64,000 nucleotides of DNA from positions 2,784,001 to 2,848,000 of the forward strand of contig OZ244160.1 in NCBI GenBank assembly GCA_965216325.1. Reading direction: 5' to 3'. Positions 57,920 through 64,000 of the stretch are shown piece by piece. Source of the stretch: Coraliomargarita sp. Its GTDB lineage: Bacteria; Verrucomicrobiota; Verrucomicrobiia; Opitutales; Coraliomargaritaceae. Every line of letters begins with the position of its first letter. Position 1 is the first letter of the stretch. Both the position numbers and the translations under genes were made by a program. A model generated the notes under the pieces. The model searched no databases, was not told the origin of the DNA, and saw only the letters and a list, made by a program, of their open reading frames with translations.

Positions 57920-58029
57920 TTGAACAAAGCCGCTGCGCGGCGGCTGTTGGTTAAGTGCTTGGGCGTCTTGGTGGGTGGTTTCTAAAGTCAAAAGTTCCGG
58001 GCTAGGCTGAGTTGCCCCAACCTGCCCGG

Positions 58030-58996
58030 ATGAAAAAAAAATACCAAATCATCAAAGACTCAGTGTTCGCAAACGTATCAACAGTTCTATGCGCATGTCC
58101 ATAGCAAAGCTCACTCGCCTCGTAGTCGTAAGGCTTATCTGGATTGGGTCAATCGCTTGGGCGAGCACTACCAACCGAAGGGCCCGGGGTTGCGCCGTCT
58201 ATCGGAACGTCAGGTGTTGGACTATCTGATCTACCTGCGCGACGACCAAAAGCTGGCCGCGTCAACGGTGAATCAGGCGCTGGTGCCGATTCGGACGCTT
58301 TACCGTGATGTGCTGGCCCGGGAGTGGAAGCTGTGGTCGGAGTTCACGCTGCAGCGGCGCGAGCCTTTGCCGAGCGTGCTCACGCGCGACGAGGTGCGGC
58401 GTGTGCTGGCCTGTGTGCATGAGGGTCGCTTTCGGGCGGTGCTCTCGCTGATCTATCACTGTGGTTTGCGTTTACAGGAGGCCTTGCAGCTCAAGCCGAC
58501 GGATATCGACTCTGGACGCGGCGTCGTTCGCGTGCGCCATGGCAAGGGCAACAAGGCGCGTGAGGTGCCGATTTGCCCGGCAATGGTCAAGCGGTTGCGG
58601 GCATTTTATAAGTGCCACCGCAATCCGGACTGGCTGTTCCCTGGCGTGGGGCGCGGCTGGAAGCAGTCAGGCATCTCTCAGGCGCAGGCGATGCACCGCA
58701 GCGCCAAGCCGATGAGCAGCTCGGCGCTGGAGATGGCGATGCGGATCATCCGCGCCAATAGTGGCATCAACAAGCACTTCACGGTGCATACCTTGCGGCA
58801 TAGTTTTGCCACACATTTGCTGGAGGACGGGGTGTCGATTCGTCAGGTCAGTCGCTATCTCGGCCACTCGGAACTGAAGAGCACGCTGGTGTATCTGCAT
58901 GTAACCGAGCTAAGTGAAGAAGGTGGCCGCCAGAGCCAGAGCGCACTGTTTGACAGTGTGATCGCTCCGGCCTTGTCGAAGCGCAGCAAGCGTTGA
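58030..58996 (+). CDS. Tyrosine recombinase (phage-integrase family), frameshifted in an A9 run right after ATG 58030
   Basis: GLR, GKG, HTLRH, LGH and Y catalytic residues; the frame of ORF 58157 stays open back to 58034 and encodes a SAM-like N-domain (HSPRSRKAYLDWVNRLGEHY). Confidence 0.85.
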
Positions 58997-60096
58997 GGCT
59001 GGCCGATCTACTGCGGCGGCATTGGCCGGAGTATGTCAGCGCGCGCGGCGGGGCACACAAGATCCCTGCCGCACACTGGCGAGCAGTCGAAGCCGTCTTG
59101 AGTTGTCGCACGTCTAGATTGGGCGGGCATGTGCACCTGTGTGCCAGTTGCGAGCGTGAGCACTATGTGTATCACAGCTGCAACCATCGAGCCTGTCCGA
59201 GTTGTGGAGGGCGCACGCAGCAGCTGTGGTCAGCACGCCAACAGGCTCGCCGCTTACCGGTGCCATACTTCATGCTGACCTTCACGGTGCCCGAGCAACT
59301 GCGCGGGTTCTTCCTGCGCTACGACCGGGTCGCCTATCAGTTGTTGTTCGCGGCCAGCTCTGGAGCGATCAAAGAACTGTTTGCCAATCCGAAGCACTTT
59401 GGTGGCGAGCCGGGCTTTGTGGCGGTGCTGCATACGTGGACACGGCAAGTGCAGTATCACCCGCATGTGCACGTGCTCGTGCCTGCCGCTGCACTCAGCC
59501 AGAGCGGATGCGAAGTAATCCGCGCCAAGCACGAGAACTACCTGTTGCCGTATGCCGCGCTGGCGCGCAGCTATCGCGACCAGTTCCTGCGTGCGTTGCG
59601 CGAGAAACATCCGGGCCGGTCTGCTGAACTGGATCCACAACTCGCGCGTATGGATTGGAACGTGAACGTTCAACCGGTTGGTCGTGGCAAACGTGCACTA
59701 CGCTACCTCGCGGCGTATGTGGGCAAGAGCGCCTTCAGTGAAGAACGTCTGGCTGGTTACGATGCGCAAGGGCGTGTGCGGCTATGGTGGACCGATTCGG
59801 CTACGGGCCAGCGCAGGCTGATGGCTCTTGAGCCCGCCGAGCTGATACGCCGCTGGCTGCTGCATGTTCTGCCCAAGGGGCTGACACGCGTGCGGCACTA
59901 TGGCACCCTCTCAGCTGCCGCGCGGGATAAATACCGCAGGCTGCGCTTCCTGCTCGGCGGCCGTGCACCTGCGATCCAACTACCTGAAGAACAGCCTCTG
60001 CGTTGTCCTTGTTGCGAGGGGCAGCTGCACCGCGTCGGCAAGCTCCGTCCAGTCCGTGGCCCACCGCTGAGCACCGCCTTACTTTACCGCAAATGA
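58993..60096 (+). CDS. IS91-family rolling-circle (Y2/HUH) transposase
   Basis: Zn-binding CASC and SCNHRACPSC, FMLTFTVP, LHTW...YHPHVH HUH motif, YLAAY (YxxxY), RVRHYG, CPCC; TTG start overlaps the recombinase stop. Confidence 0.92.
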   Translation: MRLADLLRRHWPEYVSARGGAHKIPAAHWRAVEAVLSCRTSRLGGHVHLCASCEREHYVYHSCNHRACPSCGGRTQQLWSARQQARRLPVPYFMLTFTVPEQLRGFFLRYDRVAYQLLFAASSGAIKELFANPKHFGGEPGFVAVLHTWTRQVQYHPHVHVLVPAAALSQSGCEVIRAKHENYLLPYAALARSYRDQFLRALREKHPGRSAELDPQLARMDWNVNVQPVGRGKRALRYLAAYVGKSAFSEERLAGYDAQGRVRLWWTDSATGQRRLMALEPAELIRRWLLHVLPKGLTRVRHYGTLSAAARDKYRRLRFLLGGRAPAIQLPEEQPLRCPCCEGQLHRVGKLRPVRGPPLSTALLYRK

Positions 60097-60289
60097 TCAA
60101 CCGTGTTCAACAGACAGGCCGCAGCCCCGAATCCCATCAGATTTGGGCCGTGCTTGCTTGTGCCCGTTTTTGGGATGTATCCGTAGCGTGGATACGAAAA
60201 CGCCATTATTTAGCTGCGCCCACACCAACTCTCTGTGCTGATGTGGTTTTACGGCATGATGCCGGAAAACCACATGCCTGCCGCAGCTT

Positions 60290-60310
60290 GAGATTTACAA
60301 ATCTCCTAGC
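60290..60310 (+). other. oriIS-like motif (candidate HUH nick site)
   Basis: GAGATTT-AC-AAATCTC hairpin plus CTAG about 200 nt downstream of the transposase; resembles the AAATTCCTAT-type oriIS end. Confidence 0.5.
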
Positions 60311-60395
60311 CGCGTCGATCCGAACGCCCCTCCAGCAGTGCCGCCAAAAGCGTTTCGCATATACTAAGCCGCGCCGTTAATCCAAGGGCGGGCTT

Positions 60396-60451
60396 GTTCA
60401 ACAATCAGTTATCAACGCGGCTGCGCGCGATTGATAACTTCAGGGTTAGGC
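60396..60451 (+). repeat. attC-like hairpin at the right end of the element (not of the host attC family)
   Basis: GTTCAAC (RYYYAAC)-AATCA-GTTATCAA-CGCG..CGCG-A-TTGATAAC-TTCAGG-GTTAGGC (GTTRRRY). Confidence 0.8.
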
Positions 60452-60733
60452 CTTTTTGTAATTCTTTAAGTCTCTATAGAAGTTTTCATGGCTCCCATAC
60501 GTAAGTAGACTTATTTCACTTTCATCGAAGCTATAGGAAAGTAGTGTCAGCTGTTTATTGATTTTAAACTTATGGACGAATATTCCTGCAAGATCGCCAG
60601 CTTTTTCCTGACCAATGCTAGGATTTGAGAGGATGTCTAAAACTGCATCGTCTAATTCTTTCTTTTCCTGCTTTTTGAGCTTCTTCATTTTCCTGCTGAA
60701 CGCAGGGGATACGTAGACCTTCTGTTTAGCCAA
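60446..60733 (-). CDS. RelE/ParE family toxin (cassette)
   Basis: SPAFSRKMKKL...NPSIGQEKAGDLAGIFVHKF...GSHENFY; the stop codon lies within R'' GCCTAAC. Confidence 0.88.
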   Translation of the reverse strand: MAKQKVYVSPAFSRKMKKLKKQEKKELDDAVLDILSNPSIGQEKAGDLAGIFVHKFKINKQLTLLSYSFDESEISLLTYGSHENFYRDLKNYKKA

Positions 60734-60944
60734 AAGTATATTCCTCCTTCTCAGCTTCTTTCATTTCCTCCATTGCTAATAGTGTTTCTTTAATGAAGCT
60801 GAAGGGTAGGTCTGGATTCTCTTCGGCAGCCTTTCCGATCGTTGCCCAATATTCCAACTGTGAAGTCATTGATCGATGCTCCACTTTGGATCTGGTTTTG
60901 GCTTCTTTTGCGAGATGGTCGGATATGCGAATAACAGTGCTCAT
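60726..60944 (-). CDS. ParD-like (RHH) antitoxin (cassette)
   Basis: IRISD.L..EA......HRSMTSQLEYWATIGK.AEENPDLPFSFIKE; overlaps the toxin start. Confidence 0.85.
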   Translation of the reverse strand: MSTVIRISDHLAKEAKTRSKVEHRSMTSQLEYWATIGKAAEENPDLPFSFIKETLLAMEEMKEAEKEEYTFG

Positions 60945-60953
60945 GAATGACGC

Positions 60954-60981
60954 CTTGTAGTAAAATGTAGCACATTGTCAA
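60954..60981 (-). promoter_or_regulatory. Internal promoter/operator of the TA cassette
   Basis: TTGACA-16 nt-TACAAG on the minus strand; palindrome AATGTGCTACATT in the spacer. Confidence 0.65.
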
Positions 60982-60991
60982 CTTTTTGTGT

Positions 60992-61059
60992 GCCTAACGT
61001 AGAGATGTCTCGATTCAGTGAAGCGCGGAGCGCGTAACTGAATTGAGACTATCGACTGG
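60992..61059 (-). repeat. attC site 3, interrupted by an intron at CTGG|TT (remainder TTCTAC at 61712-61717)
   Basis: GCCTAAC-GTAGA-GATGTCTCGATTCAGT...ACTGAATTGAGAC-T-ATC-GACTGG; the rejoined R'' GTAGAAC matches the cassette start GTTCTAC at 62285-62279. Confidence 0.88.
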
Positions 61060-61711
61060 GTATGCCCGGCATGTTGATAAACTAATATGGTTAAAGTCCA
61101 TTGTGAGAGCCCTGAATAACAACTCAATCACTAGAGAAGCACAAGTGCGGAATCGTGAGGTTTCGTGCGGAAGCAGTGTGGATCAAACCGACGAGCCGAT
61201 GTATAAGAACGTCATAGGAGGCACAGAGGACGGGCGAGCGGGCCCGGGATCGCGAAGCCCATCAGGTCAGATCCGATGTGTAAATGGCGCGGTTGTGTCG
61301 GGGCAGTGTATCAACTTATCCGGGGAGGCCTCGGAGGTTCGCGTTGTGGCTTCAATGTGCCAATCAAGCATCGCAGTTGAAGCAGGGATGCTTCGATGAT
61401 GAACTTCCGAGGAGTCAGCAAAGGGCATAGTAGCCGCGGAGACGAGCTTGCCAGAGGCAGGACGGACTCACGAAGCGGTGAAGGCCTGAAGTCGATCATC
61501 ATCGGGACTCATTCAGTAGACACGTCCATAAACGCCGACCGTAGCGCGAGGACCTCTGATCTCTGTCTGATACAGCTCGAAGATACGTCTACTTTTGTAG
61601 GCGCGACAACCGCCTTAAAACAGACTGCGTAGCACTGCGATCAGTCTGGCTGCGGACCCGCATGGCAGGTGGTGTGGGAGCGGGGGGAGTTAATGCCCCT
61701 CGCTACCCGAT
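61060..61711 (+). mobile_element. ORF-less group IIC (attC-type) intron, 652 nt
   Basis: 5' GTATGCCCGGCATG, core GAGTCAGC...GCATAGTAG and GAAGGCC, DV with CGC triad, DVI ending CTACCCGAT; no RT. Confidence 0.88.
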
Positions 61712-61720
61712 TTCTACCAT

Positions 61721-61978
61721 TCAGTTGTAGTGGAAACGCATCTGGACGAAAGTGATTCCGTGATCGAATTGCTTGTACACAAGGCGATGCTCTTCAGTGA
61801 TTCTTCGGGACCAGTATCCACTTAAATTATGTTTGAGAGCTTCAGGCTTTCCAATGCCTTCATATGGAGAACGCGTGATGTCCTGAATCAGTAAGTGGAT
61901 TCTCTTTAGAGTCCTTTTATCTGTTTTCTGCCAGTACTGATAATCTTCCCATGCTTGTGGAGTGAAACTGATATTCAT
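61721..61978 (-). CDS. yoeB: Txe/YoeB family toxin (cassette)
   Basis: AWEDYQYWQ..DK, GIGKPEALKHNLSGYWSRRITEEHRLVY, RFHY. Confidence 0.95.
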   Translation of the reverse strand: MNISFTPQAWEDYQYWQKTDKRTLKRIHLLIQDITRSPYEGIGKPEALKHNLSGYWSRRITEEHRLVYKQFDHGITFVQMRFHYN

Positions 61979-62232
61979 TCTGAGAGATCAATTTCTTTTA
62001 CGGTAATATTCCCTGTTTCAGCCGCTTCGATGGATGCGATCAGTCTCTTCGCATTTGCAGGACTTCTTAGGAGGTGTGCAGTCTCTTCGAGGGCTTCATA
62101 GTCTTCCAAAGAGAGCATTACGACAGCCTGCTCCCTTTTTCTTGTTATGATTATTGGGTCTCGATCTAAGCAGACCTGATCCATTGTGGATGCTAGATTC
62201 TCTCTTGCGGCGGTGTAAGTAATAGCGTTCAT
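61975..62232 (-). CDS. yefM: Phd/YefM family antitoxin (cassette)
   Basis: MNAITYTAARENLA..MDQV..D..PIIITR...VMLSLEDY..LEET.HLLRSPANAKRL; true start ATG 62232. Confidence 0.93.
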   Translation of the reverse strand: MNAITYTAARENLASTMDQVCLDRDPIIITRKREQAVVMLSLEDYEALEETAHLLRSPANAKRLIASIEAAETGNITVKEIDLSE

Positions 62233-62234
62233 TG

Positions 62235-62270
62235 TGGACATCATACTGTCCATGTTCGCGCGGGGGTCAA
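62235..62270 (-). promoter_or_regulatory. yefM-yoeB promoter with palindromic operator
   Basis: TTGACC...TATGAT on the minus strand; TGGACA-N6-TGTCCA palindrome over the -10; ATG 7 nt after the -10 (possibly leaderless). Confidence 0.65.
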
Positions 62271-62278
62271 TTTTTTTC

Positions 62279-62338
62279 GTAGAACGTGGAGATGTGGCGA
62301 CGGCTGAGCGCAGCTCAGTCGTTGCCACTATCGACTGG
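62279..62338 (-). repeat. attC site 4, interrupted by the RT-encoding intron after CTGG
   Basis: GTAGAAC-GTGGA-GATGTGGCGACGGCTGAGC-GCA-GCTCAGTCGTTGCCAC-T-ATC-GACTGG. Confidence 0.9.
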
Positions 62339-64000
62339 GTATGCCCGGCATGTTGATAAACTAATATGGTTAAAGTCCATTGTGAGAGCCCTGAATAACA
62401 ACTCAATCACTAGAGAAGCACAAGTGCGGAATCGTGAGGTTTCGTGCGGAAGCAGTGTGGATCAAACCGACGAGCCGATGTATAAGAACGTCATAGGAGG
62501 CACAGAGGACGGGCGAGCGGGCCCAGGATCGCGAAGCCCATCAGGTCAGATCCGATGTGTAAATGGCGCGGTTGTGTCGGGGCAGTGTATCAACTTATCC
62601 GGGGAGGCCTCTATCTGTGGCGAGCGTGAGCTTCAATGTGCTCACTCAAGCGCTTGCAGCGGTGACAGCAATGCCGTCGCTGTCACGGATGGAGGAGTCA
62701 GCAAAGGGCATAGTAGCCGCGGCGACGAGCCTGCCAGTGGCAGGATGGACTCACGAAGCGGTGAAGGCCCGCACTACGCATGGCAACCGGACTTGCCTCT
62801 GGAGCCCACCCATAAACGCCGGATGGCGCGCGGGCACGGGAATCCGGAGCAATACAGCCAGTTGCAAGCCGAGCTATTGGAGGCGATCTTCAGTAGCACC
62901 AACCTCGAAGCGGCCTATGGTCGTGTCAAAGCCAATGGCGGAGCCGCTGGTGTAGACGGCATTAGCTGGGCCGAGTTTACGGAATGGTTCATCCCGCGCC
63001 GTGAAGGTCTGCTGCGCCGCTTGCATCTGGGTAACTACCGCCCGAGTGCGGTGCGTCGTTGCTACATCCCAAAATCGAACGGCAAGAAACGCCCTTTGGG
63101 CGTGCCGAACCTGTTCGATCGGATCGTGCAACAAGCGATCCACCAAGTGCTCAGCCCGATGCTGGAGCCTTCGTTCAGCGAGCATAGTTTCGGGTTCCGC
63201 CCCAAGCGCGGCGGCCAACAGGCCGTCCGCGCCCTGCACGGGCACATCCGCAGCGGCTATCGCTGGGCAATCGACATCGACCTGAAGTCGTTCTTCGACA
63301 CAGTCCCGCACGCGCGTGCGTTGGAAGCACTACGCAATCGCCTCGGTGGGGATGGCCCCGTCGTGCGGTTGATTAAGCGCTACTTGGAAGCGGGCTATGT
63401 CGAACTGGACCAGTTCCACGAAACGGTCGAAGGTATGCCACAGGGCGGGCCCTTGAGTCCCTTGCTGTCGAATCTGGTGCTGGATGCACTGGATAAGGAA
63501 CTGGAGGCTCGGGGGCACCACTTCGTGCGCTACGCCGACGACTTTGTCGTGGTCGTTCAAAGCGAACGCGCTGCCAAGCGCGTCTTCTCCAGCATCTGCG
63601 ACTTCGTCGAGGGCGAGCTGGGGCTGACGGTCAACCGTGAGAAAAGCGCGGTGCGCCCGGTGCGTGAACTGAGCTACTTAGGCTTCAGTTTCCGTCAGGC
63701 CAAGATCGTGGTCAGTGCGCAGGCACTGGCCGAGTTCAAGTATCGTCTCAAGTGTTTCAGCTGTCGAAGCTGGAGCGTGTCGATGGACTACCGCCTGTAT
63801 CAGCTTCGTCAATACGCTCGAGGTTGGATGGGCTATTACGGCCTGTCCGAAGTTTACAGCGTGTGGCTGTCGATAGACAAGTGGCTTCGCAGGCGAGTTC
63901 GCATGTGCTACTGGCGCATGTGGAAACGCCCGCGACGTCGCTATCTCAATCTGGTGAAAATTGGCTCCAATAGTAAGTTTGCTGGTGGCTTTGCTAAAAG
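62339..64000 (+). mobile_element. Group IIC (attC-type) intron encoding a reverse transcriptase, truncated by the window end
   Basis: Same 5' end and domain I core as 61060, followed by an RT ORF. Confidence 0.92.
62823..64000 (+). CDS. ltrA: Group II intron reverse transcriptase/maturase (partial; absent from the ORF track because it has no stop in the window)
   Basis: Manual translation: VKANGGAAGVDG, YIPKSNGKKRPLGVP, DRIVQQA, SFGFRP, DIDLKSFFD, GMPQGGPLSPLLSN, RYADDF (63531), YLGF, RGWMGYY. Confidence 0.95.
   Translation, partial: MARGHGNPEQYSQLQAELLEAIFSSTNLEAAYGRVKANGGAAGVDGISWAEFTEWFIPRREGLLRRLHLGNYRPSAVRRCYIPKSNGKKRPLGVPNLFDRIVQQAIHQVLSPMLEPSFSEHSFGFRPKRGGQQAVRALHGHIRSGYRWAIDIDLKSFFDTVPHARALEALRNRLGGDGPVVRLIKRYLEAGYVELDQFHETVEGMPQGGPLSPLLSNLVLDALDKELEARGHHFVRYADDFVVVVQSERAAKRVFSSICDFVEGELGLTVNREKSAVRPVRELSYLGFSFRQAKIVVSAQALAEFKYRLKCFSCRSWSVSMDYRLYQLRQYARGWMGYYGLSEVYSVWLSIDKWLRRRVRMCYWRMWKRPRRRYLNLVKIGSNSKFAGGFAK

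Follow-up and report, generated by a model that had tools for sequence, protein, structure and literature searches.

Group II introns have termini of the type GUGYG...AY and a domain VI with a bulged branch-point A located 7-8 nt from the 3' end, and their domain V is a hairpin comprising a catalytic-triad helix and a 2-nt bulge. Among the described systems closest to the element analyzed here are the IIC-attC introns, which insert into the bottom strand of attC at the R'' site and lie antisense to the cassettes (PMC3001079, PMC7923331). The class IIC target is described as a stem-loop, after which come a short IBS1 (3-4 bp) and IBS3 but no IBS2, and the RT as a protein without an endonuclease domain (PMC7923331). 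Group II introns of bacteria that lack an ORF are reported in a review as rare and as found in genomes with closely related IEP-encoding introns, and such derivatives are expected not to persist for long in bacteria (Zimmerly and Semper, 2015; PMC4424553). In Thermosynechococcus elongatus, the ORF-less TeI3 introns share one deletion and are mobilized in trans by RTs of their relatives (Mohr, Ghanem and Lambowitz, 2010; PMC2882425).

We analyzed a 64,000-nt stretch of genomic DNA (the window, in whose numbering positions are given unless marked as genome positions) from a member of the Puniceicoccaceae. The analysis confirmed that the element termed here E is a genuine feature, a complete-looking group II intron without an RT gene (Table 1). 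E is probably a IIC-attC-type group II intron that is non-autonomous, having kept all six ribozyme domains and lost the RT/maturase gene from domain IV, and that would be spliced and mobilized in trans by the RT of a relative.

Similarly to introns of the S.ma.I2 and Kl.pn.I3 type, represented here by a copy beside blaIMP-4 on an IncN plasmid (NZ_MZ643942), E is placed in the bottom strand at R'', antisense and directly after the cassette gene. The Kl.pn.I3-type copy and E have homologous 5' ends (GTACGCCCAGCATGG... and GTATGCCCGGCATGT..., respectively) and homologous domains V and VI (AACCGCC...GGTGGTGTGGG...CTACCCGAT), and the RT encoded by F, a relative located one cassette from E, resembles IIC-attC RTs, with RVT_1 and GIIM domains present and the endonuclease domain absent. 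In contrast to IIC-attC introns, E has no RT gene, and its junction CUGG/U is cut one base earlier in GTT (G/TT compared with GT/T). The ORF of the Kl.pn.I3-type copy ends before an uninterrupted domain V, whereas the lineage of E carries a 33-nt insertion in domain V; the hosts differ as well, the Kl.pn.I3-type copy being located on a proteobacterial plasmid.

E resembles the TeI3 introns in its complete ribozyme, in a deletion of the RT from domain IV that leaves N- and C-terminal remnants, in co-residing with RT-encoding relatives, and in occupying several sites; by analogy, its expected mode would be mobilization by a relative's RT in trans. TeI3 introns, however, belong to class CL/IIB1, have proliferated within one genome, and have been shown experimentally to be mobilized in trans (PMC2882425), whereas mobility of E is predicted. 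The lineage of E belongs to the IIC-attC type, is represented by only a few copies per genome (two here), occurs in several genera, and has exchanged domains with RT-bearing relatives. It is like the ORF-less introns covered in PMC4424553 in co-residing with relatives, but unlike them in its apparently long persistence. Within the limited coverage of our literature search, no ORF-less intron of the integron-associated IIC-attC class was found.

Table 1. Features of E and its surroundings, in window positions.
Feature	Position	Strand	Basis or remarks
ParE-like toxin and ParD-like antitoxin cassette beside the 5' exon of E	60446..60944	-	Pfam 5.5e-33, 8.6e-19
5' exon of E: bottom-strand attC of the yefM-yoeB cassette, GCCTAAC...hairpin...CGACTGG	60992..61059	+	Sequence, DNA fold
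ORF-less group II intron E, GUAUG...GAU	61060..61711	+	652 nt; termini, Rfam, alignment, folds
Domain I (approximate limits)	61060..61324	+	RF02001, RNAalifold pairs, identity to F
Domain II; interior 61332-61408 unique to E	61325..61416	+	46-60% identity to every other copy
J2/3 linker and domain III	61417..61486	+	RF01998; 97% to C, 90% to F
Short domain IV without RT gene	61487..61607	+	Alignments, compensatory pairs, no RT similarity
Domain V: lower helix CCGCCU/AGGUGG, GC/GC, upper helix UGCG-GACC-CGCA, 2-nt bulge UG	61610..61672	+	MFE fold, pair counts in 25 sequences, Kl.pn.I3-type homology
33-nt insertion in the domain V 5' strand: UAAAA and hairpin CAGACUG...CAGUCUG	61616..61648	+	Folds, alignments; contains remnant stop TAG (61630-61632)
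Domain VI, in which A61705, 7 nt before the 3' end, is bulged	61676..61708	+	Folds, covariation
3' exon start TTCTACC	61712..61718	+	With G61059 gives GTTCTAC, complement of the cassette R'' core GTAGAAC
yoeB (61721-61978) and yefM (61975-62253)	61721..62253	-	Pfam YoeB_toxin 3.2e-38, PhdYeFM_antitox 1.2e-22
attC forming the 5' exon of F, likewise ending CGACTGG	62279..62338	+	Sequence, DNA fold
RT-encoding relative F	62339..64000 (ends 230 nt past the window)	+	Genome 2846339-2848230, 1892 nt

The original prediction of a 652-nt intron with both splice boundaries exact is borne out. The sequence reads ...CGACTGG/GTATGCCCGG at 61059/61060 and ...CTACCCGAT/TTCTACC at 61711/61712, and the same termini bound F, a second short copy (C), and the IIC-attC intron beside blaIMP-4 (GTACGCCC...CTACCCGAT); the predicted joined exons are ACTGG/TTCTAC. 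Domains I-IV are recognizable by covariance models, with matches to RF02001 at 61149-61314 (100.2 bits, gathering score 32) and to RF01998 at 61374-61486 (48.7 bits, gathering score 35), and this pair of matches was also found in F. The ends of E, GUAUG...AU, are combined with the bulged A expected of a branch point, and the A at intron position 3, which departs from GUGYG, is present in the RT copies too. An RT-encoding relative one cassette away had also been predicted, together with three core blocks common to both introns and extensive divergence of the peripheral segments. F is indeed separated from E by the single yefM-yoeB cassette, all three blocks occur in both introns, and identity to F beyond domain I varies, being 46% for the interior of domain II, 90% for domain III, 53% where domain IV begins, and 74% for domain VI.

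E lies in the R'' core (GTAGAA/C) of the yefM-yoeB cassette attC, bottom strand and antisense to the cassettes, which is the placement of IIC-attC introns in integrons or CALINs. In our reading, the cassettes would be delimited by complementary core sites, GTTCTAC/GTAGAAC and GTTAGGC/GCCTAAC, as in integrons. An integron integrase gene (TIGR02249, 357.5 bits, cut-off 265) is located approximately 9 kb to the right of E, at genome positions 2854084-2855013, on the + strand and divergent from the cassettes; altogether, the 3.06-Mb host genome contains three such genes above the TIGR02249 cut-off (2766502, 2854084, 811175).

Folded as DNA, the 74-nt 5' exon of E reaches -16.4 kcal/mol and its hairpin stops a few nucleotides before the insertion point; the 5' exon hairpins, including those at the sites of F and C, range from -16 to -19 kcal/mol and end 4-6 nt before the site. 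The locus thus presents the stem-loop and the short candidate IBS1 of a class IIC target, together with a relative's RT that has no endonuclease domain. E, C, and F all have the junction CUGG/U, which departs from the TTGT/T consensus; GUGUG-type relatives insert one base further on, after CUGGU, and the Kl.pn.I3-type copy is located at TTTGT/T. Unoccupied attC sites with the CTGG/TT motif are present in the host genome, and in one seawater metagenome contigs match the attC of E and then run on with TTAGATCC where the intron would be.

The candidate EBS1 is a domain I internal loop, AUCAGGUCAGA (61261-61271), in which (A)UCAG could pair with CUGG(U), making CUGG the candidate IBS1; this pairing is short, comprising 4 bp including a wobble. 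As we read it, the loop of C has CCGG where that of E has UCAG, and either could pair with CUGG. Position 61283 is tentatively assigned as the EBS3 of E. An earlier EBS1 candidate (CCGAU / CCAGA / CCGGU), which apparently covaried with IBS1, was rejected: it lies in the 3' strand of a domain I stem, and because these bases form a stem strand, their covariation is attributed to the stem.

The RT ORF of F starts at 62823 and is intact, encoding 442 aa with a YADD motif. The Pfam scan detected only RVT_1 (1.4e-41) and GIIM (3.1e-12) in this protein and no endonuclease domain, and its best plasmid matches in tblastn are Kl.pn.I3-type introns (approximately 46% identity over 93-94% of the protein). 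F and a further RT-encoding copy, A, share the host genome with E and C. In that genome, which is heavily loaded with introns and integrons, lineage 1 comprises four copies plus a 3' fragment, lineage 2 occurs at five loci, and a further six loci resemble parts of the RT gene at 72-75% nucleotide similarity.

The absence of any recognizable RT remnant from E, as originally predicted, holds for RT domain coding but not for the last seven codons and for diverged nucleotide remnants at both ORF ends. In blastx against the 442-aa RT of F, E matched the last seven codons only (TALKQTA, 61609-61629), which are followed by a TAG stop. At the nucleotide level, its domain IV keeps the CAUAAACGCCG block, which in F abuts the RT start codon, the GAUACAGC block, and, at its end, a hairpin (UCUACUUUUGUAGG). 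When the interior of domain IV was aligned locally with the RT gene, the score was 15, compared with a shuffle mean of 17.0 (269 of 300 shuffles scored as high), and a MAFFT alignment that had assigned three pieces of domain IV to the RT gene was discarded because it did no better than shuffles.

We infer that the short domain IV is a fusion of the beginning (approximately 40 nt) and the end (approximately 70 nt) of the ORF region, both diverged, and a single old deletion producing this junction is likely to have founded the ORF-less lineage, as part of the explanation that we favor. The first part contains the CAUAAACGCCG and GAUACAGC blocks, the last part of approximately 70 nt is a hairpin followed by AACCGCC, and the ORF-end remnants double as RNA structure. 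As in non-autonomous introns descending from a shared deletion, the copies have domain IV blocks and the junction in common and occupy several sites, and the host genome of E and C contains the RT-bearing relatives F and A.

Further copies were sought with an exact two-block pattern whose spacing requires domain IV to be short. The ORF-less set comprises six members: E, C, one copy in a Puniceicoccaceae MAG (G015), a partial copy from Thalassobacterium maritimum (Thal), and two metagenome elements (M37 and M38). C (genome 2272852-2273510, 659 nt) lies in the attC of a cassette other than that of E; its cassette encodes a 152-aa secreted protein and belongs to a cassette cluster without a nearby integrase. 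Among 401 genomes of the same order, the exact pattern placed the lineage in three, all of the same family (the host genome twice, G015, and G103). In the species-genome collection, two records matched, a 606-nt T. maritimum contig and the G015 MAG, and in metagenomes four stretches, three of them real and representing the two distinct 686-nt elements M37 and M38, and one (locus L040) a chance match without similarity to E. Viral contigs scanned with the two-block pattern gave no match. A sequence resembling a short copy, G103:C128, was rejected, as it carries the RT N-terminus.

The five complete ORF-less copies sit in five different flanks, with toxin-antitoxin or other small genes antisense beside C, G015, M37, and M38; to judge from their sequences, the neighbors of the metagenome and MAG copies include putative RelE/DinJ-like and YoeB/YefM-like pairs. 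The first base of the T. maritimum contig is precisely intron nt 2, a start that a collapsed multi-copy repeat would produce, and the insertion site is not visible because the copy is partial. The G015 copy (L023 1501-2316, contig C3) is 816 nt long because of five insertions, one of which places 43 nt between the domain V upper helix and the 3' lower strand; with these insertions and a weakened domain V lower helix, it may be dead. Its attC is approximately 85% like that of E, although the adjacent gene differs.

In domain IV, identity is 99% between E and C, 88% between G015 and Thal, 69% between M37 and Thal, and 50% between E and M37. Since this short domain has diverged to 50-88% between subtypes yet keeps its hairpins, the lineage appears to have persisted for long. 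Folding and covariation analysis of the family was positive: RNAalifold on the six sequences gave 179 pairs, 50 of them with compensatory change, a statistic inflated by kinship, and the compensatory pairs fall in hairpins of domains II (alignment columns 412-489), IV, and VI. The claim that E is not a fresh deletion of its neighbor stands, because the short domain IV is shared with, and diverged among, other copies (C, G015, and the two metagenome elements, all at different attC sites, and the partial T. maritimum copy). The related claim of a separately evolved lineage applies to the ORF-less family, which occurs across genomes, but not to E as a whole, which is a recombinant.

Positions 1-272 of E are identical to F at 271 of 272 nucleotides. 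Compared with C, E is 97-100% identical over domains III-V, but only 79% in domain I, 60% in domain II, and 64% in domain VI; domain I of C resembles that of the RT copy A (88%), and domain VI of E is identical to that of M37 and M38. The breakpoints of the mosaic fall in conserved junction sequences between domains. Because E combines F-like, C-like, and unique parts, recombination among co-resident introns is common, and at least one such event is needed, since neither E nor C is a copy of the other over the whole element. Template switching and gene conversion are both conceivable routes, and the latter alone could have handed the deletion on to a resident intron.

Domain V departs from the plain form in that CCGCCU is followed by UAAAA and a hairpin, and only then by GC-UGCG-GACC-CGCA-UG-GC-AGGUGG. 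An insertion of 33 nt or more at this place is present in E, C, F, and A and in relatives in at least eight other genomes, RT-bearing members included, whereas the host's lineage-2 introns and the Kl.pn.I3-type intron have a plain domain V without it (e.g., AACCGCCCUG-UGCG-GAGC-CGCA-UG-CAGGGUGG). The RNAfold MFE structure is a three-way junction for E, F, and one G103 copy, with z-scores of -3.1 to -4.2. In the domain V/VI model for 25 sequences, 96.8% of cells are paired, compared with 87.2% in shuffles and 38-49% with slid partners; 13 pairs change on both sides, and none of 500 shuffles reaches the observed values, although kinship inflates covariation statistics. Eight of the 12 domain VI pairs show changes on both sides. 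The helix spanning the insertion is 99.1% paired, with a both-sided change in one sequence (UCGCCA/UGGUGA), and one sequence (G100_C58) has paired changes favoring an alternative proximal strand, CAGUCU.

In RT-bearing members, the ORF ends inside the inserted domain V hairpin. In one genome (G102), two insert-bearing RT copies located in different attC sites match at 1892 of 1892 nt and retain an open ORF; the insertion thus seems to be no obstacle to recent mobility. RF00029, which models domains V-VI, gave no match at E<=1 in E, F, C, or the lineage-2 copies; this silence is not specific to the insertion, because the uninterrupted lineage-2 domain V is missed too, and surveys anchored on RF00029 would therefore miss such introns. 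A text search of the literature, limited in coverage, found no report of an insertion in domain V. We tentatively propose, at slightly less than even confidence, that a Puniceicoccaceae lineage has stayed active despite a hairpin of at least 33 nt that makes domain V a three-way junction with the RT frame ending inside it, and that it spawned a long-lived ORF-less parasite of a parasite, which would survive across genera by means of a borrowed RT and domain swaps with its helpers.

As a non-autonomous intron, E would be transcribed on the + strand, antisense to the cassettes, and spliced with the RT/maturase from a co-resident relative such as F. The RNA-protein particle would recognize the folded bottom-strand attC (the hairpin, then CUGG, then U), the intron RNA would reverse-splice at G/TT of the R'' core, and the En-less RT would copy it into DNA. 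Co-resident introns would swap whole domains at conserved junctions, which would make E a mosaic.

The most serious alternative, which we nevertheless consider unlikely, is that the ORF-less state spreads by DNA recombination and not by retrohoming, in that a domain III-V conversion tract from an ORF-less donor deletes the RT gene of a full-length intron resident at the attC, E and C being converted residents for which no movement as ORF-less RNAs would be required. This would agree with the sharp identity blocks ending at conserved domain junctions (E like F in domain I, like C in domains III-V, and 46-64% elsewhere), with the identity of F and A, 80% alike overall, over 75 columns covering the domain IV end and domain V, with domain VI types common to otherwise different introns, and with homology arms of approximately 75-80 nt (90-93% identity) flanking the deletion. 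However, patchwise conversion predicts something other than the relation of M37 and M38, which have unrelated flanks and different attC sites and are 93-100% identical in each of the six domains; such uniform likeness fits copying of the whole ORF-less element. That the lineage occurs in metagenomes as well as in three or more genera, its domain IV having diverged to 50%, likewise argues for long persistence and transfer as an entity, and the start of the Thalassobacterium contig resembles a collapsed multi-copy repeat.

An improbable alternative is that E, derived from a full-length intron, is immobile, in decay, and without activity of its own. Deletion derivatives are common in these genomes, including a 697-nt copy in G078 with domain I replaced by unrelated sequence, a 1030-nt copy in G109 with an internal deletion, and the 474-nt lineage-1 3' fragment in the host genome (2852452-2852925). 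E, however, keeps all its domains paired, with a CGC-containing domain V lower helix, a 2-nt bulge, and a bulged A in domain VI; over the core formed by domains III-V, it is 99% identical to C, located 570 kb away; and because domain IV shows compensatory changes across the lineage, selection on the RNA is indicated. The G078 and G109 copies and a 767-nt copy in G021 were rejected as members of the lineage of E, being independent deletion or decay products. The last of these (L015, G021:C105) is an independent ORF-deleted intron of the lineage-2 type with recognizable RT C-terminal coding, and provides a contrasting case of recent deletion.

A fresh deletion of F would explain the almost identical domain I and the spacing of only 627 nt, but is already contradicted by the divergence from F in domains II, IV, and VI and by a deletion-bearing domain IV that matches that of C and is homologous to those of other genera, and its probability is negligible. 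We regard as equally remote the co-option of E for an integron function, for instance as a promoter directed outward or as an antisense RNA targeting the toxin-antitoxin cassettes on either side: outward promoters driving the next cassette can be present in IIC-attC introns (PMC3001079), and E lies antisense between two such cassettes, but conservation tracks ribozyme helices and not a linear motif, and a scan for the sigma-70 consensus, which may not suit this phylum, found no site inside E and two in 60900-62700, both in yoeB, with 1.7 expected.

If E belongs to a lasting non-autonomous lineage, a compact, structured domain IV kept across genera would show that non-autonomous group II introns can persist in bacteria, that integron attC sites can host a helper-and-hitch-hiker system, and that the exchange of ribozyme domains is modular. 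Should it prove compatible with catalysis, the insertion in domain V would offer a natural test of the tolerance of the catalytic hairpin. As a small natural ORF-less attC-targeting intron, E would also be a convenient substrate for splicing and mobility experiments.

Several observations concern the surroundings of E and its relatives. A 2.5-kb unit at window positions 57926-60396, encoding a tyrosine recombinase (Phage_integrase 1.2e-36) and an IS91-type transposase (Y2_Tnp 4.2e-43, Zn_Tnp_IS91 5e-29), lies antisense inside the cassette array, with further copies near genome positions 817315-818322 and 1301330-1302337; all three abut attC at CTGG/TTGAACAAAGCCGCTGCG, the core position used by the introns. 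Tandem introns occur as well: at genome positions 552216-552279 (L008), A, which begins with T in place of G, follows immediately on the final one or two bases of a lineage-2 domain VI, and on one contig of G109 (C391, L052/L061) two lineage-1 introns lie head to tail. The window also contains an ordinary rRNA operon (7922-13159) with 16S, two tRNAs, 23S, and 5S.

The RT reading frame is open from intron nt 2 through domains I-III in F (window 62340-62822), A (genome 552279-552760), L055, and C. Over its first 480 nt, this frame is free of stops in F, A, C, and the G102 copy and contains a single one (nt 32) in G109, M37, and M38; the two remaining frames are interrupted by 6-14 stops, and eight occur in the RT frame of the Kl.pn.I3-type intron. 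Differences between F and A by codon position number 27/40/39 in the upstream open stretch, compared with 73/52/159 in the RT gene; because the upstream frame has no third-position excess, selection on a peptide encoded there is not supported.
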